Source of the DNA: a virus
Taxonomy: Duplodnaviria; Caudoviricetes
Virus record (IMG/VR): IMGVR_UViG_3300047314_000186
Location: 1 to 33,823 of that record
DNA length: 33,823 nt
Strand: one strand, 5' to 3'
Positions 12,614-29,844 of the stretch are shown one piece after another (within the stretch, counting starts at the first letter, position 1; the number at the start of each line of letters is the position of its first letter). The notes beneath the pieces are model-generated. The model did not search any database. It was not told the DNA's origin and saw nothing but the letters and a program-made list of their open reading frames with translations. Both the position numbers and the translations under genes were made by a program.

Positions 12614-12694
12614 GGCTAGCAGCACGCCGCCGGATCTAGGGTGTGGCCGCTTTAGCGGACGGCCCCACTCCCTCACCCCATGGATGGCTTCACG

Positions 12695-13632: not shown

Positions 13633-13901
13633 GCAAGAAGCAGGACAAGTACGAGGACAAGTACGCCGAGCACGAGGACGCGCCGTTGGCCGAGGGCGAC
13701 CTCACGCCGGCGCAGCAAGCCGAGCTCGGCGAGCAGGCCAAGCCGTGGCTGGAGCGGTTCAAGGCCGCGGTGGACGATGTAGCCGCTCGTCACGCACAGG
13801 GCACGGCGCCGTCGCCGGCCGTGGTGGCCGAGCTGCGGGCGCTCTACGCCGAGATGGACCCGAATGCGGCCACCGAGCCCGAGCCGGCACCCACGGCATA
13901 G
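13629..13901 (+). CDS. Hypothetical acidic protein
   Basis: ATGA-coupled; GC3 codon pattern. Confidence 0.7.
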   Translation: MSKKQDKYEDKYAEHEDAPLAEGDLTPAQQAELGEQAKPWLERFKAAVDDVAARHAQGTAPSPAVVAELRALYAEMDPNAATEPEPAPTA

Positions 13902-13926
13902 CGACATAGTCGCATAGGAGGCGATC

Positions 13927-14397
13927 ATGGCTGAATCGATGCGAGCACTGGCGCGGCGCGGCTTGGTGTCGTCCAAGGGCGTGCAGAACGCCATCAACAA
14001 CTCCACCAAGGTGCAGAAGTCCAAGATGGCGCCGTTTCATGGCCGCCAGAAGGACGAGGGCGAGGCGCACGGCCTCGGCCACGCCATTGCCAGGGTCGAT
14101 GAGATCAATGCCAAGGCCACGCAGGCCGATCGTGCCAGGTCGGCGCCGAGCACCAAGGGCCGCGCCAGCGCACCGCAGGGCGGCCATGTGGGTGCGAGCC
14201 AGACGCCGACGCGCTACCAGATCGACAAGTTCCCGCGCGGCCAGGGCAAGACGTTTCCGGCCGGCGGGAAGGTGAGCGCCAAGGGCAAGAAGAGCGTCGG
14301 CGTCAAGGGCCCCCCGGCCAAGCGCACCGGCGGCCCGGGTGGCAGCGGGCGGAACTACTACGGCGGCAGCAACCGCAACCCACCCGAAGGCGGGTAA
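13927..14397 (+). CDS. Basic, low-complexity (K/R/G-rich) protein
   Basis: AGGAGG RBS; likely disordered and nucleic-acid binding. Confidence 0.7.
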   Translation: MAESMRALARRGLVSSKGVQNAINNSTKVQKSKMAPFHGRQKDEGEAHGLGHAIARVDEINAKATQADRARSAPSTKGRASAPQGGHVGASQTPTRYQIDKFPRGQGKTFPAGGKVSAKGKKSVGVKGPPAKRTGGPGGSGRNYYGGSNRNPPEGG

Positions 14398-14400
14398 ACC

Positions 14401-14700
14401 ATGGCCAACGCGCTGCGACGAGCCGATCGGATGAAGGTCGAGACGATCGGCGGCGAGCAGTTCACGGATGCCGCCGCGGTCGTGGAGGACGTGCCGACCA
14501 CGCACAGCTTCGACCCGCAGGCCGATAAGCTCGCCAAGGTCAAGGCCGTCAGAGCGCAGGCGCAGGCGTTCAAGGCATTGCTGCGAGAGCTCGGCTCCAA
14601 TCGGGCGTTCTCGATCTCCCGGCAGCGGATAGAGGAGGCCGTCCACTGGGCGGTCGATGGAATCATCAATGAGCGGACCACTGAAAGACACCCGACGTGA
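14401..14700 (+). CDS. Acb2/Tad1-like helical hairpin protein
   Basis: KVKAVRAQAQAFKALLRELGSNRAFSISRQRIEEAVHWAVDGI resembles the R..SLA.T.LEEAVMWA.KAI family signature. Confidence 0.55.
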   Translation: MANALRRADRMKVETIGGEQFTDAAAVVEDVPTTHSFDPQADKLAKVKAVRAQAQAFKALLRELGSNRAFSISRQRIEEAVHWAVDGIINERTTERHPT

Positions 14701-15139
14701 GTTGCTTGCCCAGGCGCTGGCATCCGGCAAGAGCATGGTGGAGGCCAATGAACTCGCCGGTTATGCGAAAGGTAAGCCCTGCACCGGCACGAACGGCCAT
14801 CGCCTCGCGCACCATCCCGCGGTGAGGGCGCGCATCAACGAAATCCAGGCCACCGCCATGGCCCGCACGCTGAAGCTCCAGGCCATCGCCGCGGTGCGCT
14901 CCGCGACCACCGTGGCCTCGCTGATCGCCGAGGCCGAAGAGGCCCGTGTCCTGGCTATGAAGATCAAGAATCCCGCCGCTGCCGTCGCCGCCATCAAGGA
15001 GAAGGGCATTCTCTCGGGCATGCGGATCGAGAAGAGCGAGCATCTGAACCGCAATGTTGAACAGCTCACCGACGACGAGCTCGCCGCATATCTCACCACA
15101 GACGGCGGCGCGCCAGATCCTGAAACGACGACGCATTAG
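14669..15139 (+). CDS. terS: Terminase small subunit
   Basis: RRELLAQALASGKS..EA...AGY...HPAVRARINEI; C-terminal EQLTDDEL; directly upstream of terL. Confidence 0.85.
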   Translation: MSGPLKDTRRELLAQALASGKSMVEANELAGYAKGKPCTGTNGHRLAHHPAVRARINEIQATAMARTLKLQAIAAVRSATTVASLIAEAEEARVLAMKIKNPAAAVAAIKEKGILSGMRIEKSEHLNRNVEQLTDDELAAYLTTDGGAPDPETTTH

Positions 15140-16547
15140 GGCTTCGCTGGTCGCCTGGGCGCGCCACTGCGGTTACGAGCCGGCGCGCCACCACCGGCTG
15201 CTGATCGAGAAGCTGACGCAGGTTGCCAATGGCGAAATCGATCGTCTGGCTGTCTTTATGCCGCCCGGCTCGGCCAAGTCGACTTACGGCTCGATACTGT
15301 TTCCGCCATGGTTCATGGCTCGTGCGCCTGGCCGCTCGATCATTGCGGCCTCGCACACCACCGAGCTGGCGCAGAAGTGGGGCCGCAAGGTCCGCAATCT
15401 GATCGCCGAGCATGGCCCGACGCTGGCGGCGGTTCTTTCGCAAGACAGCCAAGCAGCGGGACGCTGGGCGCTTGCGTCGGGTGGCGAATACTATGCGGCA
15501 GGCGTTGGAACGGGCATCACCGGCTTCCGCGCCGATGGTGCCATCATCGACGACCCGATCCGGTCGCGCGAGGACGCGGACTCCGAGACGGTGAGGGAGC
15601 GGACCTGGGAGTGGTACAAATCGGACCTGCTGACGCGGCTGCGCCCTGGCGGCTTCGTTGTGCTGATTCAGACCAGATGGCACGAGGACGACCTTGCCGG
15701 CCGGGTACTTGAGGAGATGGCCAAGGGCAGCGGCGACCGCTGGAGCGTGCTGTCGCTGCCGGCCGAGGCCGAGGAGAACGATCCGCTGGGCCGCGCGCCC
15801 GGCGAATGGCTGTGGGATGACGCCTACGGCTACGCCAAGTTCCTGGCGCGGGAAAAGGCCACCCAGATCCCGCGCAACTGGAGCGCACTCTACCAGCAGC
15901 GCCCGACGCCCGAGACCGGAGACTACTTCAAGGAGGAGTGGCTGCGGCCGTATACGAAGGCGCCGGCGCGCGCCACGCTCAACGTCTACGGGGCGAGCGA
16001 CTACGCGGTCACGAGCGACGGCGGCGACTACACGGTGCATGTGATCGTGGGCGTCGATCCGGAAGGCAAGATGTGGCTGCTGGACCTGTGGCGCAAGCAG
16101 GCTTCGTCCGATGTCTGGGTCGAGGGCGTCTGTGACCTCGTGCTGGAATGGAAGCCGTGGCTGTGGGCCGAGGAGCAGGGCCAGATCAAGTCCGGCATCG
16201 GGCCGTTCCTCGATCAAAGGCTGATCGAGCGCAAGGCCTGGATCGGTCGCGAGCAGTTTCCGACCCGCGGCGACAAGGCGGTGCGGGCGCAGTCCATCCG
16301 CGGCCGCATGGCGCTGCAGGGGCTGCACGTCCCGACCGCGGCGCCGTGGTACGCGGCATTCCGTTCCGAGCTGTTGAGTTTCCCGGCCGGCAAGCACGAC
16401 GACCAGGTGGACGCGCTGGGGCTGCTGGGACAGCTCCTCGATCAGGTGTCGAGCGGGCGCAAGCCCAAGGTGCCGGTCGCCGAGGAAGAGACCGGCTACA
16501 AGCCGTTCGAGCACGAGCCCGTCAACGATAGCTTCCTGGCAATGTAG
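15054..16547 (+). CDS. terL: Terminase large subunit
   Basis: MPPGSAKST Walker A, AIIDDP Walker B, QTRWHEDDL, ALYQQRP, FPAGKHDDQVDA; start uncertain (overlaps terS). Confidence 0.95.
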   Translation: MLNSSPTTSSPHISPQTAARQILKRRRIRASLVAWARHCGYEPARHHRLLIEKLTQVANGEIDRLAVFMPPGSAKSTYGSILFPPWFMARAPGRSIIAASHTTELAQKWGRKVRNLIAEHGPTLAAVLSQDSQAAGRWALASGGEYYAAGVGTGITGFRADGAIIDDPIRSREDADSETVRERTWEWYKSDLLTRLRPGGFVVLIQTRWHEDDLAGRVLEEMAKGSGDRWSVLSLPAEAEENDPLGRAPGEWLWDDAYGYAKFLAREKATQIPRNWSALYQQRPTPETGDYFKEEWLRPYTKAPARATLNVYGASDYAVTSDGGDYTVHVIVGVDPEGKMWLLDLWRKQASSDVWVEGVCDLVLEWKPWLWAEEQGQIKSGIGPFLDQRLIERKAWIGREQFPTRGDKAVRAQSIRGRMALQGLHVPTAAPWYAAFRSELLSFPAGKHDDQVDALGLLGQLLDQVSSGRKPKVPVAEEETGYKPFEHEPVNDSFLAM

Positions 16548-16556
16548 AGGCACATA

Positions 16557-18668
16557 ATGGCATTCGGCGGCCTTCCGGCGCGATCGCAGAGCAATCCGGG
16601 CGATCAGCTCCCGAGGCGCAACATTCTCTCGGGCGTCGGCGTGCTCGGCGGGCGGCAATTCGGCGGCGATACCATGGGGCGCCGGGCGGCGCAGAATAAT
16701 CCCGGCTTCAAGTCGCAGACCGGGACGGTGGGCAACTGGGGCACCGAGGCGCCCGACGAATACGACTTCTCGGGCGACGAGGACGGCTATTTTCCGGTCA
16801 CGCGACTGCGGCAACAATACACCGACTATCTGGCAACGAAGGTGCTGGAATATGAGGAGCAGAAAGTCTCGCGCCACTATTACCACGGCGCGCACTGGAC
16901 GGCCGAGGAAATCCGCATCCTACGGCAGCGCAAGCAGCCGATCATCACATTCAACCGGATCAACCGAAAGGTTGACGGCATCACAGCGCTTGTGCAGCGA
17001 CTTCGCCAAGACCCGAAGGCTTTTCCCCGATCGCCTAAGAATGCCGGCGGCGCCGAGCTCGCAACGCAATGCATCCGCGCCGCGCTCGACGGGATGGACT
17101 TCAAATACCTCGACTTCGAATGCACCAAGCAGGCCGCCATCGACGGCATCGGCGGGATCGAGCTCAAGCTGATCGAAGGCGACCATGGCGATCCAGATAT
17201 TGGTGGTGATTTCATCTTCGGAGATGACTTCTTCTACGACCCGCGTTCGTATAAGCCGGATTTCAGCGATGCGCGCTATATGGGCATCGCGAAATGGCTT
17301 GATGTGGAAGCTGCGATTGAGCTTTTCCCTGATAAAGAGGATGAGCTGCGGACCCTTATGGTGGATACCGGCTTCGATCTCACGACGCATTCCGATCGTG
17401 AGTTCAAATGGGTCTATGTCAACGAGCAGAGACTTCGACTGATCGAGCACTGGTACAAGCACAAAGGTAAATGGTACTGGGCGTTCTATTGCAGCTTCAT
17501 TTTGCTGGATCAGGGCGTGTCGCCGTTCCTCGATGAGCGCAACAGGCCGATGAACCGCTACGTGATGTTCTCGGCCGCGGTCGACCACGATGGAGATCGC
17601 TATGGTTTTGTTCGCAACCTCAAAGGCCCGCAAGACGAAGTCAACCAACGACGCTCCAAAGCGCTCTTTATCTCGAATGTTACGCGCACTTTCGCGCAGA
17701 AAGGCTCGGTTGACGATGTGGAAACAGCTCGCCGAGAAAGCTCGCGCCCCGACGGATGGGTAGAATACAACAAGGGCTTCGAGAAGCCGATGCCGGACGA
17801 CCGGCAGGCCGATCTGGCGGCGCAACTGCAACTCATGCAGACAGCGACGAGCGAAATCGATGGATTCGCCAACATACGACCCGACGCCATCGGAGCAGAT
17901 GACTCTACGTTTCATTCAGGGGTGGCGATTAATTACCTTCAGAAGGCCGGCATCGCTGAACTCGGTTCGTTTATATTGGCGTATCGCGCGTGGAAACTGC
18001 GTGTTTATCGTACCGTGTGGAATATCGTCAAACGCACCTGGAACCAGGAGCGGTTCATCCGCGTGGGCACCGACGACACCCAGAAACTGATTCAGATCAA
18101 TGGTTTCGGCAAGGACCAGTTCGGCCGTCCCGGTTTCATCAATGCGATCGGCGATATCGAGGTCGAGATCGTGCTGGACGAGGGGCCGGACAACGCCAAC
18201 CTGATGCAGGATGCCTACGAGGTGCTGGCACAACAGCCTCCGGGGACGATACCGCCGCAAGTCCTGATCCAGATGATGCCGATCGCGGACAGCATCAAGA
18301 AGCAGCTCGTGCAGATGATGAGCCAGCAAGACCCGATGGCGCAGCAGGCCAAGCAATTGACCAACCAGCGGCTCGGCGCCGAGGTGGACGAGAAGAAGGC
18401 CGGCACGATCCATCGCTATGCGCAGGCCGCCAAGGCGGCGAGCGAGGCGCACACCAACGTCACCCAGCTCGTGCATCAAGCCATGGGCATCACGCAGGCG
18501 GGCGTGCTAGATGCCAACACCCCGGATCAGCCTGGGCAGGGTGGCCAGCAGCCGCCATCTGGACTGCCGCCGCCCGTGCAGCAACCACAGCCCATGCGCG
18601 TCCAGCCGTTCGCCCGGCCCGCAGCGCCTCGGCGTTTCGCACCAGCCCCGATGCGGCGTCCAGCTTAA
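16557..18668 (+). CDS. Portal protein (P22-like)
   Basis: YYHGAHW..EE...L..RKQP.ITFNRI, GFVRNLKGPQDEVNQRRSK, SGVAI; Q/P-rich tail; follows terL. Confidence 0.9.
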   Translation: MAFGGLPARSQSNPGDQLPRRNILSGVGVLGGRQFGGDTMGRRAAQNNPGFKSQTGTVGNWGTEAPDEYDFSGDEDGYFPVTRLRQQYTDYLATKVLEYEEQKVSRHYYHGAHWTAEEIRILRQRKQPIITFNRINRKVDGITALVQRLRQDPKAFPRSPKNAGGAELATQCIRAALDGMDFKYLDFECTKQAAIDGIGGIELKLIEGDHGDPDIGGDFIFGDDFFYDPRSYKPDFSDARYMGIAKWLDVEAAIELFPDKEDELRTLMVDTGFDLTTHSDREFKWVYVNEQRLRLIEHWYKHKGKWYWAFYCSFILLDQGVSPFLDERNRPMNRYVMFSAAVDHDGDRYGFVRNLKGPQDEVNQRRSKALFISNVTRTFAQKGSVDDVETARRESSRPDGWVEYNKGFEKPMPDDRQADLAAQLQLMQTATSEIDGFANIRPDAIGADDSTFHSGVAINYLQKAGIAELGSFILAYRAWKLRVYRTVWNIVKRTWNQERFIRVGTDDTQKLIQINGFGKDQFGRPGFINAIGDIEVEIVLDEGPDNANLMQDAYEVLAQQPPGTIPPQVLIQMMPIADSIKKQLVQMMSQQDPMAQQAKQLTNQRLGAEVDEKKAGTIHRYAQAAKAASEAHTNVTQLVHQAMGITQAGVLDANTPDQPGQGGQQPPSGLPPPVQQPQPMRVQPFARPAAPRRFAPAPMRRPA

Positions 18669-18679
18669 GAGGTTCCCCC

Positions 18680-19096
18680 ATGCTCAGATTGCTTCTCGCC
18701 GCGCTGGCAACAGCGTGGTGTTCGTGGACTAGTCCACCCGCGTTTGCGCAGTCGGCGCCGCTCAAGTACGACAGCCTCGCCTCCACCAACTCGACCCTGG
18801 TCGTTTCCGGCGCCGTGCAGCTTCGCGTGCTCGGCCTGTTCAATACGACGGCCGCGATCTATTGGCTTAAGCTGTACGATCTCGCCGTGGCGCCAACCTG
18901 CGGCACCTCGGTCGTGAAATGGAAGGTGCCGATCCCGTTCGGGGCAGCGAATGCCGGCGGCGGCGCCGTCATGCCGATTTCCGATGGCTTGGCATTCGCC
19001 AACGGGCTGGGCTTCTGCCTCACCGGACTGCAGGCCGACAGCGACACCACGGTGGCGGCGACCGGCCTGGCGATCAATTTCGGCATCAAGCAGTGA
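18680..19096 (+). CDS. Signal-peptide-bearing beta-rich spike/fibre-base-like protein
   Basis: GAGG RBS; MLRLLLAALATAWCSWTSPPAFA|Q; STNSTLV...WLKLYD.A.APT.GT...GLAFANGLGF..TG..ADSDTT. Confidence 0.7.
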   Translation: MLRLLLAALATAWCSWTSPPAFAQSAPLKYDSLASTNSTLVVSGAVQLRVLGLFNTTAAIYWLKLYDLAVAPTCGTSVVKWKVPIPFGAANAGGGAVMPISDGLAFANGLGFCLTGLQADSDTTVAATGLAINFGIKQ

Positions 19097-19121
19097 TGGT
19101 GCTTCAGGATGAGGGCTCACC

Positions 19122-19571
19122 ATGAGGGGGCTCATAACGGCGCTTCTCATCTGCCTAGCCTCATCGGCGCCGGCGCAACTGCTGACCACGGGATACGGCT
19201 CCGGGAGCTTTGCCAGCGGCGTGTTCATTGCGCTGTCCAACACCTCGATCCTGGAAATGTCCTCGAACGGCACCACGCTCGGCACCGCGAGCATCGCGGG
19301 CGGCAGCACCACGGGCGTTCCGGTCTGGGCCCTGACCGACCCTTTGGGGGTTTTCCAGATCAACTCGGGCACAGGTATCGTGACCGTGCTCAGTAACGTG
19401 AACCTGGTGTTCGCGACCCACCCGATCATCCCGATCACCATCTCGGTGACCGGAACGGTGCCGACGGTTCCTTCGCGGATCGTCAACATCAACGTGTTGC
19501 CGATCGGCTGTACTGGCGCGCTCGATCTTTCCAAAGGTTGCCCACAGGCCATGCTTGGAGGTGTGCCATGA
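19122..19571 (+). CDS. Signal-peptide-bearing cadherin-like domain protein
   Basis: MRGLITALLICLASSAPA|Q; ILE....GTTLGT...WAL...FQINSGTGIVTV...ITISV pattern; terminal Cys pair. Confidence 0.65.
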   Translation: MRGLITALLICLASSAPAQLLTTGYGSGSFASGVFIALSNTSILEMSSNGTTLGTASIAGGSTTGVPVWALTDPLGVFQINSGTGIVTVLSNVNLVFATHPIIPITISVTGTVPTVPSRIVNINVLPIGCTGALDLSKGCPQAMLGGVP

Positions 19572-20593
19572 ACAAATGGCATCTGCGTTTTCTTCGCCTG
19601 GCCTATTTTGGCCTTGCCGCCATCCTGCCGATCTACGCCCTGGCCGACTACAACGCCACGCAGGGTGCCGGCACGATCTTCCGCGCTTTCGATTCCACCC
19701 ATGGCGGCACCTCTCTTTGCGCCGCCGCCAACACCCAGTGTCAAGGTATTGTCAATACTAACTCTGCAGGTGCCGAAGTTGGTATCGCTGCTGCCCCTCT
19801 TCGAATCGACCCCACTGGCACCACCACCCAGCCCGTCTCCGGCACCGTCGCCGCCACCCAATCCGGCGCTTGGACCGTCAACCCGACGACCGCGGCGAAC
19901 TGGGGCATCGGCACCAGCACCTACAACAGCGCGCTTGTGGCCAACGGACAGTTGATGCTCGGACAGTTCCTGACCTCGCCCGGCACCCTGACCACCACCA
20001 ACATGGCCCCGCTCCAGGTTGACTCGACTGGCAACCTCCGCGTCAACGTTGTCGCGGGCGGCGCAGGCGGCGGCGCCGTCACTGTGGCAAACGGCGCCGA
20101 TGTCGTCGAAGGCAACAACACCGACGCCGCCAGTTGCAGCAGTGGCACTTCCGTTGTTGCTTGCTTGCGACAGATCAACACCAATATTGCCGCTCCGATC
20201 CCCGCTGGCACTGCTCATATTGGCACCGTCGGTGTGGCACCATACGCAGACGGCGCCGTGCCGATCACAGCTACTGCGACCGGCACGACTGCGGCCACCA
20301 CCGCCACGCTCGCGGCCTCGGCCGGCGGGCTGAAGACCTACATCTGCGGGTTCTCGATCCGTGCCAATGCCACAGCAGCGGTGACCAACAATGCGACGGT
20401 GACCGGCGTTATCACCGCGACCATGAATTTCACGCAATGGACCGCGCCACTTGCCAGTGGCCTGGGCGTGACGGAAATGGTGTTCACGCCCTGCATTCCA
20501 TCGAGTGCGACGAATACGGCGATCGCCGTGGTGTCGGGCGCGCCAGGGACCGGCGGCGTCATATCCGTCTCGGCCTGGGGATACCAACTCTGA
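19568..20593 (+). CDS. Signal-peptide-bearing T/A/G-rich fibre/decoration-like protein
   Basis: GGAGG RBS, ATGA overlap; MNKWHLRFLRLAYFGLAAILPIYALA|D; C-terminal beta-sandwich-like segment ending SAWGYQL. Confidence 0.7.
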   Translation: MNKWHLRFLRLAYFGLAAILPIYALADYNATQGAGTIFRAFDSTHGGTSLCAAANTQCQGIVNTNSAGAEVGIAAAPLRIDPTGTTTQPVSGTVAATQSGAWTVNPTTAANWGIGTSTYNSALVANGQLMLGQFLTSPGTLTTTNMAPLQVDSTGNLRVNVVAGGAGGGAVTVANGADVVEGNNTDAASCSSGTSVVACLRQINTNIAAPIPAGTAHIGTVGVAPYADGAVPITATATGTTAATTATLAASAGGLKTYICGFSIRANATAAVTNNATVTGVITATMNFTQWTAPLASGLGVTEMVFTPCIPSSATNTAIAVVSGAPGTGGVISVSAWGYQL

Positions 20594-21510
20594 TGTGGCA
20601 CCGTCTTACAGTCTGGGTGCTTCTGCTTGTTGGAATTGTGTGCCTGGCACAGCAAAGGCCGTCTAGCGCCTACTGGCAAACTCGGGACTCAGCGTACAAC
20701 AATCCACCAACCAGCGGTCCCGCCCGTATGTGCACCGACGGCGCCCACGCTGCCGCGTTCAACGCCCGCACCTCGGGCCAGAACGCCGCCCACCTCGATG
20801 CCAACTGCAACTTCATCAACGGCCTCGATAGCGACTCCCTCTATGCCTCTGCCGATCTCATCTATCTCCTCGCCACCGACACCGCGCCCAACGCACGCCT
20901 CAACATCACCTCCGCCAGCTTCACCATCACCGAGGTCAACTCCCCGGTCTTCACTACCGACTCGGGCTACACCGTTGGCGGCACCTCCACCGCCAACCTC
21001 GACACCAACTACAACATGGCCACCAACGGCGTTACCTTCCTGCAAAACAGCGCCTCTGCTTTCATCTGGACATTGACCAACCTCAACAACACCATCGATT
21101 ACAAATATGCAGTAGGTACGCACCAGGCCGTTCCATTGCTGGCCATCTATCCGATGTTTTCCTCTGCTACAACTTTTCTGCGGATTAACTCCACCACCAA
21201 TGCCTCGAATACAGGCATGGGTCACTTCTTCGGAGTCGAACGCGACCTATCCACCGGCTCGACTGCTGAGGATGGCTACCAGGACGGCGTTAATTGTTGC
21301 TCCGGCGCGAGCACCTCTTTGGCCCCATTTAGCGGCAACATCATCATCCTGAACTCCGATGCTGGTGGCGTGAACTCATCCCCCTTCGGCGGCAACGTCG
21401 CCTTCTTCTGGGCTGGCGGAACCATCGGCGCCACCCAAGAGGTCAAGCTCTGCCACCGAGTCAACCTCTACCTCACCACCATCGCAGGCGCTGGCGCAGG
21501 AGTTTGCTGA
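20593..21510 (+). CDS. Signal-peptide-bearing lectin/ConA-like protein
   Basis: TGATG overlap; MWHRLTVWVLLLVGIVCLAQQRPSSA|YWQ; GL..D.LY...DLIYLLA......ARLN...FTTDSGY......LDTNYN. Confidence 0.65.
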   Translation: MWHRLTVWVLLLVGIVCLAQQRPSSAYWQTRDSAYNNPPTSGPARMCTDGAHAAAFNARTSGQNAAHLDANCNFINGLDSDSLYASADLIYLLATDTAPNARLNITSASFTITEVNSPVFTTDSGYTVGGTSTANLDTNYNMATNGVTFLQNSASAFIWTLTNLNNTIDYKYAVGTHQAVPLLAIYPMFSSATTFLRINSTTNASNTGMGHFFGVERDLSTGSTAEDGYQDGVNCCSGASTSLAPFSGNIIILNSDAGGVNSSPFGGNVAFFWAGGTIGATQEVKLCHRVNLYLTTIAGAGAGVC

Positions 21511-24500
21511 TGCGGATCGCGGCCCTTCTCCTCTCCATGCTCCTTGCCGCCCCCGCCTATGCCTGGCCTCGCCACGGCGCCTCCACTGGCGGTGGCACCA
21601 TCGCCCCCGGCCTCGTCCTCGGCACTTACGGCTCCACCACCGCTTCGGGCTGGACTACCATTGGTCCGAGCGATAACACGATGCCCTCCTTCGCCACCTG
21701 CCCTGGTGGCACCAACATCGTATACATCTCCGACTCGCTCGGCGAGGACAACCGTGACGGCTCAACCCCAACCTTCGTCGACGACAACAACACCGCGCAG
21801 TTCGTTCTAAGCTCTGCCATCGTCCCGGTGGTGAACGACGTTTACACAGAGATGTCCACCGGGTTTACATTCACCGTCGCGACGACCGCAAGATCAAGTT
21901 TCGGCACAGTTTCTAATGTATTTTTGCAGACGAAGAACCGCACCGGCACTCCTCCTACCACCGGTACGCTGAATCGAACCTCTGGCACCGGCCCTGCCGG
22001 CCCTCTGACCTACACTGCGAGGACACTCGGCATTCACGGCCCGATCAAGACCATCATCAAGGCCATCTCAAGCGGCATTGGCTCTCCCAATACAACAACC
22101 GGCCCAGGCCCCTACGATCCCGACAACACCGGCGGTCCCTTTGTCCCCAATGGCGACGGCACCGGCCTCGGCACCATCGGCAACTGGCGAACAGCCGGCA
22201 GCGTCGGTGCCAGCTTCGGCCTTCGCGATCACTGCCCAGACTGGGCCCTTCTTCGGATGGGCGACACCTTCGTCGGTCAGGCATTTGAGACGAATTGGAA
22301 TGTTGCTGCGTCCGATAACTTCCAATGGAACGGATTCTCTGAACAAGAGCCGATGGTCATCTCGGCCTATGACGAGGCCGTCCTTGTGACAACCCCAGAC
22401 TTAGGTTCAGGATTGCGGGCACGGCCGATTGTTCAGGTCCCTTCTTCAAACCCCGCCTACGCAGGCGGCCGACCAGCCGGAACCCAGCACGCCTTTTATG
22501 CCCGCCCTGGAATGAACTTGACGGCTGGCAAAGGCAACTACGTCGCCGTCATGGGCATAGACTTCTACTCCGCGCAGCGAAACCCTAGCGACGGGGCGTA
22601 TGTCGGCGCAGGAAACATAAGCAACGACAACAACATCGGCATTGACCATCGCGGACAACAAACCGGCTCCCTGATCGAGGACACCCACGCTAGATGGTTC
22701 ACCAACGGTTTTACATACGACAACGCCAGTGGTTCATCCATCACGCGCAACAACTTCGACATAACCATCCGTCGCAGTCAGGTTGACCACTGCTACGACT
22801 CCGCCGGGAACAAGCACAGCGGCATAGTCGTCGACAGCGTCGGGGCCATAGGCGGCGCCATGTCTCCAGGGTTTTCCTTTGAGGAAAATGTAATGGATCT
22901 GTGCGGCTGGGATAACGTCGGCTTCACGTCCGGCAGCCAGTACAGCCGGGACGCCTATTTGCAATGGGATGCTGTCTTCGGCAATCGTCGAGGAAACACC
23001 GCCACCAGGAGTGCATCAGAGGGCATTCAGTTCCGCTCCGGCGGTGTCATCGACAACAACTTCTTCTACAACGGCAACTACGGTCTTGATGTCGGCCACC
23101 AGGAAGGCGACCCGACGATCACCAGCAGCACGACCGTCACCAACAACGTAGTCATGTCTCCCGTGATCACCCACGGCGTTGCCGTATTAGGGTTCAACTT
23201 CTACAACGCAAACAACATAACGGCCACGGGCAACATCGTAGCAAATGTTGATAGCGCCATAGGTGACGCCACTGCGAATTGGGTTGCAACGGATGGCAAC
23301 AGAGGCGCTCCCGCCTACTTGAACCTGACGAATGCAGGAACCGGTGGAGCCCCGGGAAATTACGCTATTGGTGCATGGAACGCGGGAGCTGAAGGGTGCA
23401 ATGGTTCGCCTCCCAACTTCACCGGAGGAGCAGTCACCGTCATGGGCATCTATTCTATGCTCATTGGCGCTGGTGGAACAATCACCCCTGATCCCCTCAC
23501 CGGTGGTTTGTCTTACATGGAGCCGAGTCCTGGCGGGGCATCTCTGCCCGGGGACGTTCTGACCCCTGTAGCCGGCTACCCGAGCATCAACACCGCTGGC
23601 CTGTCGCTTACCGCTGTCGGATCAGGCGGCACGCTGGGTGACTACGGCACCGGCTTCGGCCATTGCCCGCGCGATCCGGCCAGTACGACACCCGGAGACA
23701 CCCAGTACGGCGTAGCTCTGACCAATTTCAGCGGGAGCATGTCCGGGTCAGGCGCAGCCGCGACTTTCACTTCAAACAGTTTCAGTGGAATTACGCGAGC
23801 CTTCAATGGCGGCACGGGAACCTATCACGCTGTTGGCACGACGACCAACACCAACACCATCGACACGACGGCTGGTGTCGGGACAAACAAGATTACTGTC
23901 ACTGGCGTGACCCCGTCGGCTTATAATAGCACCTGGACGATTGTATCCTTCAACTCAACGGCGATAGAATGGGACACTGGCCTCGCGGCTGATCCCGGTC
24001 CCGTGACCGTCCCAGGGAAATTAAATGCCTTCGCCATCATTGCGACCGGCAAGAACTACGTCGCCGGTGACGTTCTCTCCATCGCCTCGACCGACATCGG
24101 AGGGCAAACCGGCGTTCGCATCACGGTCGGTAACGTAGCGCATCTGAGCGGATGGACCGTTTCTGTCGCTTCTACGGAGAGTGCCGGCACTCACGGTCTG
24201 ACCTGGACCAACAACATCGTCTACAACTGGTCCGGTCAAAACCCTCCATTGATCGACGACGAGGGCGGCACGCACGACTCTCCTGGCGGCGTCCTCGGCA
24301 GCGGAACCGCCAACACCTTCACCGGGAACAGCGTCTGCGTGGGATCGCAGTTCACTGGAGTGATCACTGGGCCGAACACTCTTACAACAAGCGCCATCGT
24401 CAACGGCCCCATCGCCATCGGCCAGAACCTCGCCGGACCTGGGGTCACCGCTAACACTACGATTACTGGGGGCAGCGGTACGAGCTGGACGGTGTCGCCA

Positions 24501-24743
24501 AATCAAACTGCTCCTAGCGCTACAATGTACGGCTACACCTGCACGCCGACCAAGGTCTACGCGCATCCCGAGCGCACCGTCCAAACCTACGCCGCCTTCC
24601 TCGGCCTCACCGCCACCATCGACGGCTACCTCTACGGCAATGGGACCACCACCGGCGCGATGAACAACGCGAAGTGGAACTGGAACCCTGCCTACACCGC
24701 CAACAACGGCATCAACCCATACATCCGACTTGGATTTCAGTGA
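21510..24743 (+). CDS. Large signal-peptide-bearing right-handed beta-helix (pectin-lyase-like) tailspike/depolymerase-like protein
   Basis: TGATG overlap; MRIAALLLSMLLAAPAYA|W; VYISDSLGED..DG...PIKTI.KAI, LLRMGDTF, Asn-ladder repeats (IDNNFF, VTNNVV, ATGNIV, WTNNIV). Confidence 0.75.
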   Translation: MRIAALLLSMLLAAPAYAWPRHGASTGGGTIAPGLVLGTYGSTTASGWTTIGPSDNTMPSFATCPGGTNIVYISDSLGEDNRDGSTPTFVDDNNTAQFVLSSAIVPVVNDVYTEMSTGFTFTVATTARSSFGTVSNVFLQTKNRTGTPPTTGTLNRTSGTGPAGPLTYTARTLGIHGPIKTIIKAISSGIGSPNTTTGPGPYDPDNTGGPFVPNGDGTGLGTIGNWRTAGSVGASFGLRDHCPDWALLRMGDTFVGQAFETNWNVAASDNFQWNGFSEQEPMVISAYDEAVLVTTPDLGSGLRARPIVQVPSSNPAYAGGRPAGTQHAFYARPGMNLTAGKGNYVAVMGIDFYSAQRNPSDGAYVGAGNISNDNNIGIDHRGQQTGSLIEDTHARWFTNGFTYDNASGSSITRNNFDITIRRSQVDHCYDSAGNKHSGIVVDSVGAIGGAMSPGFSFEENVMDLCGWDNVGFTSGSQYSRDAYLQWDAVFGNRRGNTATRSASEGIQFRSGGVIDNNFFYNGNYGLDVGHQEGDPTITSSTTVTNNVVMSPVITHGVAVLGFNFYNANNITATGNIVANVDSAIGDATANWVATDGNRGAPAYLNLTNAGTGGAPGNYAIGAWNAGAEGCNGSPPNFTGGAVTVMGIYSMLIGAGGTITPDPLTGGLSYMEPSPGGASLPGDVLTPVAGYPSINTAGLSLTAVGSGGTLGDYGTGFGHCPRDPASTTPGDTQYGVALTNFSGSMSGSGAAATFTSNSFSGITRAFNGGTGTYHAVGTTTNTNTIDTTAGVGTNKITVTGVTPSAYNSTWTIVSFNSTAIEWDTGLAADPGPVTVPGKLNAFAIIATGKNYVAGDVLSIASTDIGGQTGVRITVGNVAHLSGWTVSVASTESAGTHGLTWTNNIVYNWSGQNPPLIDDEGGTHDSPGGVLGSGTANTFTGNSVCVGSQFTGVITGPNTLTTSAIVNGPIAIGQNLAGPGVTANTTITGGSGTSWTVSPNQTAPSATMYGYTCTPTKVYAHPERTVQTYAAFLGLTATIDGYLYGNGTTTGAMNNAKWNWNPAYTANNGINPYIRLGFQ

Positions 24744-24931
24744 CCTACAACGCGCAATTCGCCCATATGGCCGCGCTCGACCGCTGGCCGAAGCGATGGC
24801 GCGAGCTCGCCTACGAATACGGCTTCAAGATCGTCAAGGAAATGCGCGATCAGCACGGTGGCTATCACGCCGTCAAGACCGACCTGGAAACATGGCGTGA
24901 ACGCCGCCAGGACGAACTGTTGAGGAATTAA
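24740..24931 (+). CDS. Small hypothetical protein (63 aa)
   Basis: GTGA overlap with the preceding stop; MAALDRWPKRWRELAYEYG. Confidence 0.6.
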   Translation: MTYNAQFAHMAALDRWPKRWRELAYEYGFKIVKEMRDQHGGYHAVKTDLETWRERRQDELLRN

Positions 24932-24935
24932 AGCA

Positions 24936-25922
24936 ATGGCACCGAGAACACAGCACCCGCCGGCGCAGGATGCGGATGACGAAAGCCTCCTGGTCGCCGC
25001 CATGGCCAATACCGAGAGCGAGATCTTCACCGAGGCGATGGGCGACGACGAGGACGATAACGACGGCGATAACTCGCTCGAACAGATGGAAGACCCGGTC
25101 GGCGACGACGAGGAGGACGCCGGCGAGGAGGAGGGTGACGAGGAAGGCCAGGAGGAGACCGGTGACGAGGCACCGCAGGAAGGCGCCCGTGAGCCTCCTC
25201 CGCAGGAACGCCCGAGTTACCGCCTGCCGCCAGTCGACCCTTCCGCCCAACGCATTGCCGAGCTCGAAGCCAGGCTGGCACGCATGGAAGCGCCCCGGCA
25301 AGAACAGCCGGCGCCGCCCCCGCAGGAACTGCCCGACCCCGTCCTCGACCCGGCCGGCTTCCGCGAAGGCATGGCGGCGCAGATGCGGGCCGAATATCAG
25401 CAGGCCACCAGAACGGCCATTCTGGAGAACAACTTCAAGGCAACCGAGGCGGCCTATTCGCGTGAGAACCGAAGGGACGAATTCACGCTGGCAGCAAGCC
25501 AGTTAAACGAGCTTTCGTTTCGCGCCAGGACGGACCCGAATGCTGCGGCTACGGTACGCGGCATCGTGAATGCACCCGATCCCGGCTACGCGCTGATGCA
25601 ATGGGCCGAGGATACCCTCGACCTGGAGAACTTCCGCCAGGAGCAGGCGGAACGCAACCGCGAGCAGGCAGCACGCCTGCTCGGTGTAGACCCTGCAGAT
25701 CTTGAAGGCATTGCCCCGCAGCGCCAGGCGCCGCGGCAGGATACCCGGGAGCGCGGCGAGCAACGCCAAGCGCCCGCACAACGCGGCAGGGGGACTAGTC
25801 CCCGGCTTCCCTCATTGAACTCAGCAGGCGGCGTCGGGCGCGAGGGCGGCAATAGCCGTAACCTCGACCCGCGCGGCTTCGACGGTTCCGAGGAAAGCAT
25901 CTTCCGAGACGCATTCAACTAG
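24936..25922 (+). CDS. Capsid scaffolding protein
   Basis: Very acidic N-terminus, coiled coil, PDPVLDP, C-terminal PSLN...ESIF; directly before the capsid gene. Confidence 0.8.
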   Translation: MAPRTQHPPAQDADDESLLVAAMANTESEIFTEAMGDDEDDNDGDNSLEQMEDPVGDDEEDAGEEEGDEEGQEETGDEAPQEGAREPPPQERPSYRLPPVDPSAQRIAELEARLARMEAPRQEQPAPPPQELPDPVLDPAGFREGMAAQMRAEYQQATRTAILENNFKATEAAYSRENRRDEFTLAASQLNELSFRARTDPNAAATVRGIVNAPDPGYALMQWAEDTLDLENFRQEQAERNREQAARLLGVDPADLEGIAPQRQAPRQDTRERGEQRQAPAQRGRGTSPRLPSLNSAGGVGREGGNSRNLDPRGFDGSEESIFRDAFN

Positions 25923-26003
25923 CTACGCTTCGCGCTTCCCGGCCTAGCCGGTTCGGCGCGCTCCGCTAAGAAGTCCGTAGCCAACCCTTGAAGGGGTCTG
26001 GCC

Positions 26004-27152
26004 ATGGCCATCACTACCGTACAAGCCCAAAATAAACTCATCGTCTTCCGCAAGGAAGTCACACGAGAATACATCCGGCAGAACCTGTTTAGCCCGTATG
26101 TGGGCACAGAACTCACCGCGATCATCCGCGTCATCAATGACCTGAAAAAAGGCGGCGAGCAGATCAATATCCCGCTGGTCGCAAGGCTCAAGGCCAACGC
26201 GATCTCGACCGGAACGCTCGTCGGCAACGAAGAAAATATCGACAATTTCGGCGATCGGATGTGGATCGACTGGGCGAGAAACGCCGTCCGCATCCCGAAG
26301 TCCGAAGAGCAGAAGTCGAGCATCGACCTATTCGGCCAGGCGCGTCCGCTGCTCGAAGACTGGGGCAAGGAGCTCCAGCGCAACGAGATCGTGGACACGT
26401 TCAACACAATCCCGATCCAGAACACACAGCCCGCCGGTCTCGGCTCTGCCGGCGGCCAGCGCGTCAACGGCGCGTTTTTCGACGCGGCAACCCCAGCACA
26501 ACGCAACACATTCACCACCGACAACAACGATCGCATCCTGTTTGGTGGCAGCCAAGGCAACCTGTCGCCCGGCAACTGGGCAACCTCGGCCGCTAATGTC
26601 ACGTCCGGCATGACCTTCAGCGCCGCCGCGGCAAATAAGATGAAGCGGCTGGCCAAAAAAGCCAACCCGAGGATCAGACCCTACAAGCTGAAAAACGGCC
26701 GGGAATATTTCGTGGTCTTCGTGGGGTCTAATTGCTTCCGCGACATCCAGCTCGACACCACGATCATCAACGCCAATACCCAGGCGCGTCCGCGTGAAGG
26801 CGACGGGCTCGACAAGAACCCGCTCTTCCAAGACGGCGACCTGCTCTACAACGGCATGATCTTCCGCGAGATCCCGGAATTGGATATCCGACTGCCCACG
26901 ACCTACACCACCGCTGGCGCCGGCGGTATCCAGATCGCGCCCGTGTTCATGTGCGGACAATCCGCCATGGCCTGGGCGTGGGGCAGAATGCCTCGCCCGA
27001 CGTTCCTCAAAGAGGACGACTACCAGTTCTACCGCGGCGTCGGCGTGGAGATGGCCTATGGTCTCAAGACCATAGCCAAGGCGAACCCGGCCGGAAACTA
27101 CAAGAGCTGGGGCATCTTCTACGGGTATTTCGCCTCGGCGAACGACACATAA
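26004..27152 (+). CDS. Major capsid protein (DUF4043/N4-gp56-like)
   Basis: DLKKGGEQINIPLV..L, GTLVGNEE, RNAV, NPLFQDGDLLYNG...REIP, CGQSA. Confidence 0.9.
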   Translation: MAITTVQAQNKLIVFRKEVTREYIRQNLFSPYVGTELTAIIRVINDLKKGGEQINIPLVARLKANAISTGTLVGNEENIDNFGDRMWIDWARNAVRIPKSEEQKSSIDLFGQARPLLEDWGKELQRNEIVDTFNTIPIQNTQPAGLGSAGGQRVNGAFFDAATPAQRNTFTTDNNDRILFGGSQGNLSPGNWATSAANVTSGMTFSAAAANKMKRLAKKANPRIRPYKLKNGREYFVVFVGSNCFRDIQLDTTIINANTQARPREGDGLDKNPLFQDGDLLYNGMIFREIPELDIRLPTTYTTAGAGGIQIAPVFMCGQSAMAWAWGRMPRPTFLKEDDYQFYRGVGVEMAYGLKTIAKANPAGNYKSWGIFYGYFASANDT

Positions 27153-27219
27153 GAGCCGCGGCTGCCCTCGCGGTTCTATCGGCCCGGCGCTGCTGCTCGT
27201 CAGGAGGCGGCAGCGTCGG
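27152..27219 (+). terminator. Two GC-rich hairpins after the capsid gene
   Basis: AGAGCCGCG...CGCGGTTCT and GGCGCTGCTGC...GCGGCAGCGTC; may stabilise mRNA or attenuate transcription. Confidence 0.4.
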
Positions 27220-27253
27220 TTCCGTCCCTCAACCCAACTTGAAAGGCAATCCC

Positions 27254-27844
27254 ATGAAGAATCTCATCTCGCGGGTGAGCGGCGGATTACTTGCCGGCCT
27301 CGCTCTTGCTCTGCTTGTCGTCGGATCTGGGCTCTATGTCGCGGCTCAACCCGTGTTCTCGCCGCGCATATTCCCGACCCAGCAAGTCCACTACATGCGG
27401 TTCCCGGTCAACTTCAATTCCTGCCCACTCCCTGCCGCGGCCGGCAACTGCTCCTATAAAGTCGGCGCAGTTCCATACAATTCATGGATCCTGCGCGGCG
27501 TCCTCGAGGTATTCACCTCGTTCAACTCCACCACCACCGACACCGTTGCATTGAGCACGGCTTCCGGCACGGGTGCATTGCTCGTGGCGGGAACCTCGAC
27601 GCACGGTGCCGCCGGGGTCACGCAATTGACCATCGTCACGGCGACCGGCCTCGGTGTGCAATCGACCGGCAACAACATTGCCCAGACCGGGAGCAATGGC
27701 GGCTTCGATATCTGGGCAAATCTCGCGTACACGGGCGCCTCGCCCGCAACGGCTGGAGCCGCCGCCATCGTGCTGGAATACGCCGCTCCCAATGACGGAC
27801 TATGCGGGCCGGTCGCACTCGGCGCCACCGCTCCCGGATGCTGA
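27254..27844 (+). CDS. Signal-peptide-bearing capsid decoration/cement-like protein
   Basis: AAAGG RBS; MKNLISRVSGGLLAGLALALLVVGSGLYVAA|Q; VG.VP.NS.IL...EV.T.FN...D...TAGAA.IVLEY jelly-roll-like pattern; immediately after the capsid gene. Confidence 0.7.
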   Translation: MKNLISRVSGGLLAGLALALLVVGSGLYVAAQPVFSPRIFPTQQVHYMRFPVNFNSCPLPAAAGNCSYKVGAVPYNSWILRGVLEVFTSFNSTTTDTVALSTASGTGALLVAGTSTHGAAGVTQLTIVTATGLGVQSTGNNIAQTGSNGGFDIWANLAYTGASPATAGAAAIVLEYAAPNDGLCGPVALGATAPGC

Positions 27845-27851
27845 GGGCAAC

Positions 27852-27872
27852 GGGGCGGGATCTCCCCGCCCC
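27852..27872 (+). terminator. Short GC hairpin
   Basis: GGGGCGGG-ATCT-CCCCGCCCC followed by TTCCT. Confidence 0.4.
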
Positions 27873-27895
27873 TTCCTCCATGAAAGGATAAATCC

Positions 27896-28282
27896 ATGAG
27901 CCTAGCCAATAGCGCGCTTCTCAATTCACTGTCGCTCGCCGGCACGGTGCTGGACGACAACCAGACCGCCGGCGGCGCCACCGGCGTGACCGTGCAGGCT
28001 GGCGCCACCTCGATCGTCGGCGAGGGCATCCGCGTGCTGCGCGGCGCCGCCGGCACCAGCGTCATTCTCAAAAGCGTGCTCTCGGGTGACGCCGGCCCCT
28101 TGGTGTGGATCGTCAACGACGGCCCCAACTCGATCAATGCCTTCCCGGCGGCCGGCGAGTTCAACAATGGCGGCGCCAATCAGGTATTGGCAGTTCCGGC
28201 CGGTCAAGGTGCCATCTTCGTTCGGGTACCGAATAACTTGGCTGGGTCCAGCAGCGGTTGGCGTAGCGCCGTAATTCCTTGA
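27896..28282 (+). CDS. Small beta-rich virion accessory protein (no signal peptide)
   Basis: AAAGGA RBS; IVNDGPNSINAFPAAGE..N.GAN..LAVPAG pattern. Confidence 0.65.
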   Translation: MSLANSALLNSLSLAGTVLDDNQTAGGATGVTVQAGATSIVGEGIRVLRGAAGTSVILKSVLSGDAGPLVWIVNDGPNSINAFPAAGEFNNGGANQVLAVPAGQGAIFVRVPNNLAGSSSGWRSAVIP

Positions 28283-28292
28283 GAGGTGAAAA

Positions 28293-28871
28293 ATGAACAG
28301 CACCGCAGAACTGACCCGCGCCAAGACCGCCGAGCCGAAGGCCGAGATCAAGGTCACGTTCCATCCCGGCCCCGAGGACAAGGCACAGGCGACCGTAAAT
28401 GGCATCCTCTTTGTCGCCAACAAGCCTGTCGTGATGTCACGAAAAAACAAGCGGCATTACTTCGAGGACGACATGCCCCAACACCATGTCGCGGCCGACG
28501 GAACCCATACCACGCGCACCGTGAGGACACTCACCTTCATGCCGGATCGACTGAAGGACAATCCGTTCTTCGAGGTCGAAGGCTTCCCGCGGTTCGTCAA
28601 ACCGATCGCGCACGGCCGCAAGCCGCAAACCGCGGAAGAATACCGGTCCTGGGCGCAAGCCTGGTTCGCGGCGGCGGGGACCGATGGAAGCGACGAGCAA
28701 ACCCCGCGGGAAATGGTCTATCGCTGGGACGTCGAGAAATCGATGCGCGAGCTGATCGGCGTCGGCGAGGAGGATATTGCGATGCTGCGGCCGTTCTTCG
28801 ACATGAAGGTCGAGCAGATGAACAGCAACCTCGGCATCAAGCACGCCAGCAATGACGGCGGGGATATGTAA
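28293..28871 (+). CDS. Hypothetical late protein
   Basis: GAGGTG RBS; KVTFHPG...NGILF..NKPV...LKDNPFFEV. Confidence 0.7.
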   Translation: MNSTAELTRAKTAEPKAEIKVTFHPGPEDKAQATVNGILFVANKPVVMSRKNKRHYFEDDMPQHHVAADGTHTTRTVRTLTFMPDRLKDNPFFEVEGFPRFVKPIAHGRKPQTAEEYRSWAQAWFAAAGTDGSDEQTPREMVYRWDVEKSMRELIGVGEEDIAMLRPFFDMKVEQMNSNLGIKHASNDGGDM

Positions 28872-29323
28872 TGGCTCCCTACGCCGGCCAGTACCGCACA
28901 GTCAACGACCTGATTGACGAGGCGCTGGCAAAATTGGGCGTGAAATCGGCCGGCCAGCCTACCGATCCGGAAGACTACAACTACGTGTTTTCAGCCTACG
29001 ATGCCATCCTGCGCAAACTGGCCGGCCTGGAGATCATCACGCTGTCGAGCTACGACACGAGTTCCGTTCCCGGCGCGTGGTTCCTCGATCTCGCCTCCAT
29101 CATCGCCGGCGAGGTATGTCAGAAGTTCAGCTACACCGGGCAGGACCGCACCGACATGATGAATGCGGGGCTCGGCGACGGCGTGACGGTCGAGATCGGC
29201 GGCGGCGCCGCCGCCAAGTCGCTCAAGCAGATCACGCGGTTGAAGCCGACCTTAGAACCGTTGAAGGCCGATTACTTCATCTGGGCGGCACTTTTTATTG
29301 CAGCATCGGGAATGATTTCATGA
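28871..29323 (+). CDS. Head-to-tail adaptor (P22 gp4-like)
   Basis: TVNDLIDEALAKLGV.SAGQ...PED; lies before the gp10-like gene. Confidence 0.7.
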   Translation: MAPYAGQYRTVNDLIDEALAKLGVKSAGQPTDPEDYNYVFSAYDAILRKLAGLEIITLSSYDTSSVPGAWFLDLASIIAGEVCQKFSYTGQDRTDMMNAGLGDGVTVEIGGGAAAKSLKQITRLKPTLEPLKADYFIWAALFIAASGMIS

Positions 29324-29844
29324 ATCTAACCCATGAGAGGCTTCTACGGGTTCTCTTCTACGATCCAGAGAGCGGTATTTTCTCGTGGAATACTAAAACA
29401 GTCACACGCGGACGCCCCAGTAAGCTTTTCGGTGTGAGAGCCGGAACCATTTCGGGCGCTGGAAAGACCCGCACAAAATCTTACCGAATGATCGGCGTAG
29501 ACGGCACAAAATATCAGGAGCACCGATTGGCTTGGTTCTATATGACAGGCGAATGGCCGGCCTCTCTTGTCGATCACAAAGATCTCGATGGCCTCAATAA
29601 TAAGTGGCTAAATCTCCGTGAAGCTACGCACAGCACGAATAAGGCAAATCGCGCGGCGCCTGCAAACAATACAACAGGCTTCAAGGGCGTCAGTTTCAAC
29701 AAAGCCCAAGGGCTCTATCAGGCGAGTATTTGCCGCCAATACAAGCAGATGCATCTCGGATTTTTCGATACCGCAGAGCTTGCAGCTGCGGCCTATGAAA
29801 AGGCTGCGCGCGAGCTATTCGGTGAGTTTGCACGAGCATCCTGA
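29320..29844 (+). CDS. HNH homing endonuclease with AP2 domain (1)
   Basis: YDPESGIF.W, HRLAW..MTGEWP..VDHKD.DGLNN...NLR.AT..N, NNTTGFKGVS...HLGFFDT; ATGA overlap. Confidence 0.9.
   Translation: MNLTHERLLRVLFYDPESGIFSWNTKTVTRGRPSKLFGVRAGTISGAGKTRTKSYRMIGVDGTKYQEHRLAWFYMTGEWPASLVDHKDLDGLNNKWLNLREATHSTNKANRAAPANNTTGFKGVSFNKAQGLYQASICRQYKQMHLGFFDTAELAAAAYEKAARELFGEFARAS

Follow-up and report, generated by a model that had tools for sequence, protein, structure and literature searches.

Sec-type leaders on candidate outer virion proteins of a temperate soil podophage point to a possible periplasmic branch of tailed-virion assembly

The stretch of DNA analyzed here, hereafter the window, is the whole of a virus contig (IMG/VR record IMGVR_UViG_3300047314_000186; 33,823 bases, CheckV completeness 76%) that comes from a temperate P22/Pam1-like podophage, and its late region carries six genes, g1–g5 between the portal and scaffold-like genes and g6 behind the major capsid gene, whose products each start with a predicted Sec-type leader. 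By eye, the left end of the contig carries an integrase-like gene together with a repressor pair; rightward of these, Pfam and PHROG matches mark genes for terminase, a P22-like portal, the major capsid protein, head closure, and DNA ejection. The late cassette is laid out as follows (aa, amino acids; E, expect value):

16557..18668, plus strand: P22-like portal gene (PF16510, E 8e-90; phrog_156), no leader
18680..19096, plus strand: g1, candidate spike base; 23-aa Sec-type leader (18680-18748) and 115-aa jelly-roll domain with one Cys pair
19122..19571, plus strand: g2, candidate short fiber or linker; 18-aa leader, QLLTTGYG-type N-terminal peptide, cadherin-like insert, and C-terminal two-Cys motif
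19568..20593, plus strand: g3; 26-aa leader, Ala/Thr/Gly-rich stalk with two local Cys pairs, and C-terminal domain of ~111 aa with a third pair
20593..21510, plus strand: g4; 26-aa leader, YWQTR-type N-terminus, and lectin-like-looking viral domain, 6 Cys
21510..24743, plus strand: g5, candidate adhesin or depolymerase; 18-aa leader, WPRHG N-terminus, and 1,059-aa mature chain, 8 Cys
24740..24931, plus strand: 63-aa charged gene without leader or cysteine, coupled to g5 and recurring near the portal in relatives; weak phrog_33180 match
24936..25922, plus strand: scaffold-like acidic gene, by position and composition; no leader, no Pfam or PHROG match
26004..27152, plus strand: major capsid gene (PF13252), Pam1-related (35% identity to the capsid protein of podophage Pam1; 7eel_A, E 1.4e-57), no leader
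27254..27844, plus strand: g6; 31-aa leader (27254-27346) and 165-aa cement-like jelly-roll chain with 4 Cys forming two pairs

All five open reading frames (ORFs) of g1–g5 translate stop-free, and we could confirm the overlaps noted in an earlier, sequence-only reading of this DNA, which had described five packed late genes linked mostly by ATGA or TGATG overlaps: the successive gaps from portal to scaffold are 11, 25, −4 (ATGA), −1 (TGATG), −1 (TGATG), −4, and 4 nucleotides (nt), and Shine-Dalgarno-like motifs precede most of the starts. The portal-to-scaffold block is one tightly coupled late operon, in which, as that reading had also noticed, the ORF list conceals the starts and leaders of g1, g3, and g4 behind upstream starts at 17990, 19538, and 20134. 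This layout bears on the possibility that g1–g5 are morons, that is, periplasmic or surface proteins expressed in the lysogen for superinfection exclusion or host adhesion and merely parked in the late operon, for which one could cite that the content of the slot differs between close relatives and that the GC skew of the block departs from that of its flanks. The hallmarks of a moron (its own promoter or terminator and separate transcription) are nevertheless missing here: start and stop codons overlap and so leave no room for promoters, the gaps are at most 25 nt, a sigma-70 scan, weak for this host group, yields no promoter-like site in 12400-28400, and terminators in the same interval occur at chance level (15 versus 13.2 expected). 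The cement and tailspike proteins discussed below also share the leader trait, and we consider the moron explanation highly improbable.

Leaders were called with a rule of our own for substrates of Sec and signal peptidase I (basic n-region, hydrophobic h-region, small residues at −3 and −1), applied identically to all genes. The rule is positive for 7 of the 17 window proteins, namely g1–g5, g6, and an early PEP-CTERM-like gene product, and negative for the other ten, including terminase, portal, scaffold, capsid, adaptor, and nozzle, with a background of 11 positives in 1,636 windows taken from the interior of the six late proteins. The earlier claim of Sec-type leaders on all five genes is thus borne out in contrast to the core late genes, as are the mature Cys counts of 2, 2, 6, 6, and 8 for g1–g5, which are always even and to which g6 adds 4. 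For g4 the rule favored residue 19, whereas homologs reading PALA/YWQTR favor a site after residue 26 and thereby back the PSSA/YWQ cleavage originally proposed. A lipobox, a Tat (twin-arginine translocation) motif, and a mature transmembrane-like segment are absent from all six proteins, so that cleavage would free soluble periplasmic chains; N-glycosylation sequons in g2–g6 occur at the expected frequency, without excess. Overall, the predicted Sec export and disulfide oxidation of g1–g6 are strongly supported by the comparison with relatives that follows.

To place these features among relatives, we fetched 80 IMG/VR loci with the capsid protein and 80 with the g1 profile, and reduced the 74 loci with a full capsid gene to 49 representatives at 95% identity. 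Only 1 of 268 core genes in these representatives is rule-positive (terminase 0/9, portal 1/34, scaffold 0/49, capsid 0/49, adaptor 0/40, nozzle 0/34, g7 0/22, g8 0/31), as against 62 of the 130 genes in the portal-scaffold slot and 34 of 42 post-capsid cement-like genes (38 when four long leaders recognized by eye are counted); all other genes give 13/241 and 7/184. Within the slot, leaders and Cys pairs co-occur, an association for which the sequence-only reading had suggested that homologs be surveyed: the 62 leader-positive genes comprise 52 with even, 6 with odd, and 4 with no cysteines, and the 68 leaderless ones 20, 28, and 20, respectively (Fisher p 2e-7, a value inflated by kinship, since the relatives are not independent). 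The same holds for the g1 domain taken separately, whose Cys pair is present in 50 of the 54 calls with a leader and in 4 of the 12 without, the latter four being two that look leader-like at another start and two probably truncated calls; a leaderless g1 homolog, gp4 of Caulobacter phage S2B, has no Cys pair.

The leader phenomenon is clade-wide. In the capsid tree, a 41-row clade (support 100/100) has cements that are leader-positive in 38 rows (the four by-eye cases included), leaderless in one, and uncalled in two, and the three cements called in the remaining 8 rows are all leaderless. Three leader-bearing cements, which fall outside the 32-row core group, contain no cysteine, and export therefore probably preceded disulfides, which would then not be the original reason for it.

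Could the leaders be uncleaved membrane anchors or pro-peptides that keep these proteins at the inner membrane until an otherwise cytoplasmic assembly? Long leaders (at least 31 aa) on g6 and some homologs would suit such a role, and the export considered here is a predicted one. The g1 family, however, in which 100 of 109 homologs are leader-positive, shows, in about 100 homologs, a conserved mature start preceded by small residues at −1 and −3; leader length varies among homologs and the mature start is fixed, and Cys pairs track leaders. We regard retention as uncleaved anchors as improbable.

The g6 gene, which lies directly 3′ of the capsid gene, is hidden behind an upstream GTG and had been overlooked by the sequence-only reading. 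Its mature chain, modeled at a predicted local distance difference test (pLDDT) score of 85, is predicted to adopt a capsid cement fold: Foldseek returns the Pam1 cement first (7eel_H, E 9.6e-4), as the sole one of 500 matches at E <0.001, and VIA-align superposes 128 residues of the two at a root-mean-square deviation of 3.5 (Z 8.8). The top three VIA chains are all cements, from Pam1, GP4, and KHP40 (Z 8.8, 7.7, and 7.3), ahead of the next row at 6.7. A PHROG match (E 3e-5) that would label g6 an Rz-like spanin was dismissed in view of this fold, the gene position, and the lack of a lipobox or transmembrane segment. Following the cement gene is g7 (27896-28282), a conserved, leaderless, and Cys-free protein of 128 aa, none of whose 22 homologs has a leader and which may serve as a second decoration protein, a cytoplasmic one.

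Beyond the end of the contig lies the tailspike gene, whose features are accordingly drawn from relatives: a search of 46 genomes located it in 34, with 30 loci returned. A leader is present in 23 of these 30 tailspikes, and the other seven begin exactly at the predicted cleavage position. In the complete relative G001, whose capsid protein is 99% identical to that of the window, the leader stands directly ahead of the head-binding domain (7eeq, E 0.009; 9vyg, E 0.004) of a protein that matches phrog_8763 (tail) at E 3e-27. The leader thus appears to be an add-on to known virion proteins, and it seems to have been gained gene by gene, because three genomes (those of L054, L056, and L106) combine an exported-type cement with a leaderless tailspike. 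As this true tailspike is encoded separately, downstream of the ejection genes, g1–g5, which the sequence-only reading had called spike- or fiber-like, look more like a head-spike or vertex set than like tail fibers.

Individually, the five proteins range from conserved domains to singular ones. The g1 model (pLDDT 94) is an all-beta single jelly roll, a common fold, whose best VIA match is nucleoplasmin (Z 8.0), with penton-like and cement chains just below; its Cys pair, C51 and C90 of the mature chain, is near-invariant and invariant, respectively, in 97 rows. Versions of g2 ranging from 60 to 149 aa keep the N-terminal hydrophobic-glycine peptide and the C-terminal two-Cys motif, and those of 60-65 aa retain both ends and lack the insert, which in g2 itself has a weak cadherin match (E 0.042). 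A co-fold of four g1 copies with the 43-aa short g2 of a close relative (score 0.00, mark 0.32), in a setup whose four copies cannot make a pentamer, carries no weight in either direction. The C-terminal domain of g3 (20258-20593) occurs as a stand-alone gene of 143-192 aa in the same slot of many relatives, where it is the most constant gene, usually alone, and leader-positive in 25 of 27 distinct carriers. By eye only, the N-terminus of g3 resembles that of leaderless proteins that begin MADN- (hhalign 0.6%). Atlas assigns g4 to unnamed viral clusters (0.98) and to a ConA-like cluster (0.96; PF13385 on 24% of members), its closest annotated look-alikes being ConA/laminin-G lectin-like, and the cultured phage Mwe-JY13 has a leaderless, Cys-free g4 homolog right after the portal. 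The g5 protein has close relatives only and matches no family in Pfam, PHROG, or NCBIfam, and its Atlas beta-helix lead (0.86) falls below the Atlas mark. Cultured phages yielded no match to g5, g6, or the C-terminal domain of g3, and the PDB gave no usable profile match to that domain or to g1. Profile comparison detects no mutual similarity among mature g1, the g3 C-terminal domain, the cement, and the spike-base-like protein introduced below; one profile match among these proteins was discarded, as it aligned leader to leader.

The first mature residues appear to work as modules. WQTR-type and Q-hydrophobic-Gly-type starts are alternatives on the g4 body, the g4-type start also stands on a laminin-G body (P0128), and the g5-type N-terminus is joined to different bodies of ~750 aa in L007 and L102. 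The sequence-only reading had proposed that these short mature N-termini are docking peptides; their retention across body swaps is as that idea predicts, and docking itself would still be our interpretation. Furthermore, two relatives have in the slot a leaderless 81-aa protein, of which the L061 copy matches the head-spike base of the Rhodobacter capsulatus gene transfer agent (RcGTA; 6tb9_E3, E 1.3e-5), and two genes past the L061-type gene lies one that starts with alternating Ile and Gly. In RcGTA, according to PMC7296036, a jelly-roll pentamer grips a flexible capsule-binding fiber by fiber residues 2-10, and a head-spike role for g1–g5 fits these observations.

These modules also bear on a narrower reading, in which only cement and tailspike are exported virion parts and g1–g5 form a late secreted toolkit of lectins, hydrolases, and decoys that acts on the envelope or extracellular polysaccharide or is freed at lysis. 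Direct virion homologs are indeed lacking for g1, g3, and g5, slot genes of relatives include SGNH hydrolase and arabinofuranosidase-like domains, and the g1 cassette accompanies several head types, also standing beside the head genes of contigs with other gene orders that look myo- or siphophage-like by eye. Against a toolkit stand the N-terminal peptides retained across body swaps, the leaderless g4 homolog behind the portal of Mwe-JY13, and the head-spike base in the slot of leaderless relatives; moreover, carbohydrate-active domains are common on spikes. On balance we find a secreted toolkit unlikely, though less so than the other alternatives considered here.

We propose instead, with a probability of roughly 0.65, that g1–g6 are outer virion parts that are exported, cleaved, and oxidized and that dock on finished particles at lysis. 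They would be exported by Sec, cleavage by signal peptidase I would regenerate a particle-binding N-terminus, and DsbA/B would close the disulfides of parts then stored in the periplasm; naked DNA-filled particles, built in the cytoplasm, would receive these parts when the inner membrane gives way, in the course of lysis or immediately afterwards. The Pam1 cement touches the capsid through its N-terminal loop (PMC9698820), which an uncleaved leader would lengthen. On the head, g1 and the g3 C-terminal domain would serve as bases or anchors, and g2, g4, and g5 would hang on these bases by their short N-terminal peptides, with cadherin-like, lectin-like, and beta-helix-like heads that could grip capsule or soil polysaccharide. 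Late addition of this kind is feasible, since the decoration proteins gpD of lambda and Soc of T4 bind finished capsids in vitro. A similar sequence of export, cleavage, oxidation, and joining at lysis had been suggested from the DNA letters; its export and oxidation steps gain support from the comparison with relatives, the link to the virion is strengthened by the leaders on the cement-like gene and on the tailspike of near-identical relatives, and it is the presence of the parts in the virion and their joining at lysis that we infer.

Several observations weigh against this proposal. The leader calls come from our own n/h/c-region rule, and the clade is one without a cultured isolate, virion, or proteome, the phage records that match the contig's capsid protein numbering only 7, each at <36% identity. 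Family matches tied to a known virion protein are absent for g1–g5 (0 of 5 in both Pfam and NCBIfam; for g4, PHROG families of unknown function only). In neither Foldseek nor VIA does g1 find a specific structural match, it shows no detectable similarity to the L061 spike-base homolog (hhalign 0.17%, with a shallow profile), and the RcGTA base Rcc01079 is not among its listed fold matches. The cement match of g6 is structural and modest, weak by sequence (hhalign to Pam1 gp6 10%, E 0.003), and its PDB profile search gave no match. The slot is hypervariable, with 68 of 130 genes leaderless, and it therefore also takes ordinary passengers; in several relatives a leaderless fiber adaptor gene stands beside leader-positive neighbors. 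Finally, no endolysin is recognized among the scanned genes of complete G001, which leaves the exit step undocumented for the nearest relative.

The last point is what a staged or non-lytic exit would build on, in which particles enter the periplasm or a membrane bleb with the help of small membrane proteins, are dressed there, and leave later. The late operons of complete G001 and 84%-complete G003 end in membrane-like genes of 41-75 aa (L167 6884-7720 and L169 6450-6896, respectively), with no endolysin or spanin recognized. Leader-bearing G011, G017, and G020, however, have phage lysozymes (3 of 34 genomes), G011 also being one of two among the 34 with GH108; moreover, an overlooked endolysin is the simpler reading, and a particle of ~60 nm cannot cross intact peptidoglycan. 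Such an exit thus seems to us a poor bet compared with docking at lysis. In the lysis region of G002, a 299-aa protein without family match (L170 12474-13373, minus strand) combines, by eye, a holin-like N-terminus, a second leader, and an outer-membrane-protein-like part.

An alphaproteobacterial host is probable, because G001 encodes a homolog of the GcrA cell-cycle regulator (PF07750, E 1.5e-24; L167 7713-8186, minus strand, adjoining the integrase) and two of the three metagenome-assembled genome contigs matched in GTDB are alphaproteobacterial, the third being Thermoguttaceae at 56%; the GTDB search returned no integrated prophage of a named isolate. The 24 listed runs that contain this DNA are all soil or rhizosphere metagenomes, 11 of them possibly its source, and no RNA run is among them.

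Membrane genes beside the cassette in relatives match Wzy_C in 8 of 12 scanned cases, 3 of them above cut-off. These O-antigen ligase/O-oligosaccharyltransferase-like genes lie in head modules, beside leader-bearing genes, at the following positions:

L025 2202-3281, L027 7527-8672, L053 7719-8705, L106 3958-5049: Wzy_C genes
L110 1926-3110, L114 8780-9910, L130 8865-9890, L108 3608-4768: Wzy_C genes of further loci

They hint at periplasmic glycosylation in some relatives, PF04932 being found in 5 of 47 genomes and in none of this contig (76% complete), G001, G002, and G003.

Other genes of the window and its relatives deserve brief mention. The product of the early PEP-CTERM-like gene (9025-9789) starts with a leader, ends in a PEP-CTERM/VPLPA-like tail (PF07589, E 0.006, short of the cut-off), and is a possible exosortase substrate; at the equivalent place G001 has an unrelated-looking gene with the same kind of tail. 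An Acb2/Tad1 hairpin protein (14401-14700; PF24729, E 6e-9) is a likely anti-defense sponge, and G001 also has a Tad2-like gene (L168 6168-6395). On both sides of the nozzle gene, 29320-29844 and 31583-32119 resemble HNH/AP2 homing endonucleases by eye and are missing from several close relatives. Ahead of the terminase region, 12680-13420 encodes 246 aa with nine cysteines and an HEH motif, without a family match, and a 118-aa early gene product (6944-7300), conserved in G001 and G003, is hydrophobic at its N-terminus and proline-rich in its middle and has two cysteines in its tail. In G002, two short genes flanking the portal (L104 6904-7173 and 9284-9535) join a twin-arginine-like leader to a piece similar to the capsid N-terminus.

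On a wider view, a widespread group of soil phages may build a two-compartment virion, with a cytoplasmic core and with periplasmic cement, head spikes, and tailspikes that bear cleavage-exposed docking peptides, host-made disulfides, and possibly glycans, with lysis as the final assembly step and with a trait that reached podo-, myo-, and siphophage-like genomes one gene at a time, a picture whose chances we judge evenly balanced. If it is true, lysis becomes an assembly step, virions can draw on the disulfide-forming and glycosylating enzymes of the host, and host-recognition proteins that are sticky or hydrolytic stay out of the cytoplasm. Annotation pipelines would class such genes as morons or as secreted proteins of the host, their starts escape gene callers, and recombinant production of such spikes would call for periplasmic expression.

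Tailed phages are taken to complete their assembly in the cytoplasm, and disulfide-linked siphovirus tails are reportedly the subject of one paper (PMC13576161). Our literature search, whose coverage excluded supplements and most subscription papers, found no description of Sec-exported tailed-virion parts, and the consulted passages of PMC13412088 and PMC9144972 deal solely with host DsbA and with lysis proteins. The folds of the parts are known ones, and their two-compartment route, without a described counterpart in the literature searched, is probably a new one.

The closest precedents can be set beside the cassette one by one. As in the RcGTA head spike (Rcc01079 pentamer and Rcc01080 fiber, 6TB9), g1 is by model a small jelly roll, its neighbor g2 starts with an alternation of hydrophobic residues and glycine that is similar, not identical, and a likeness of pattern only, and leaderless relatives carry a true Rcc01079 homolog in the g1–g5 slot; unlike that spike, the cassette has five genes rather than two, with leaders and Cys pairs. 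With Pam1 gp6 (PDB 7EEL chain H), g6 shares the predicted jelly roll and the post-capsid gene position, and with gp1 of Ralstonia phage GP4 (8H89) and the cements of Helicobacter phages KHP40/KHP30 (7DOU, 7DN2) the predicted jelly-roll cement fold. Whereas Pam1 gp6 and Pam5 gp6 are leaderless, g6 adds a 31-aa leader and two Cys pairs, one of them in a C-terminal extension. Likewise, the head-binding domain of Pam1/P22-type tailspikes (7EEQ, 9VYG) is present at the mature N-terminus of the relatives' tailspikes, 23 of 30 of which have a Sec-type leader that Pam1 gp17 and Pam5 gp16 lack. Phage proteins known to be routed through Sec include filamentous-phage coats, spanins, which form periplasmic disulfides, SAR (signal-arrest-release) and signal-peptide endolysins, and envelope morons; g1–g6 share with them, by prediction, the host Sec pathway and, with spanins, the disulfides, but whereas those proteins are membrane coats of non-tailed phages, lysis proteins, or lysogen proteins, g1–g6 are candidate soluble parts of a tailed virion.

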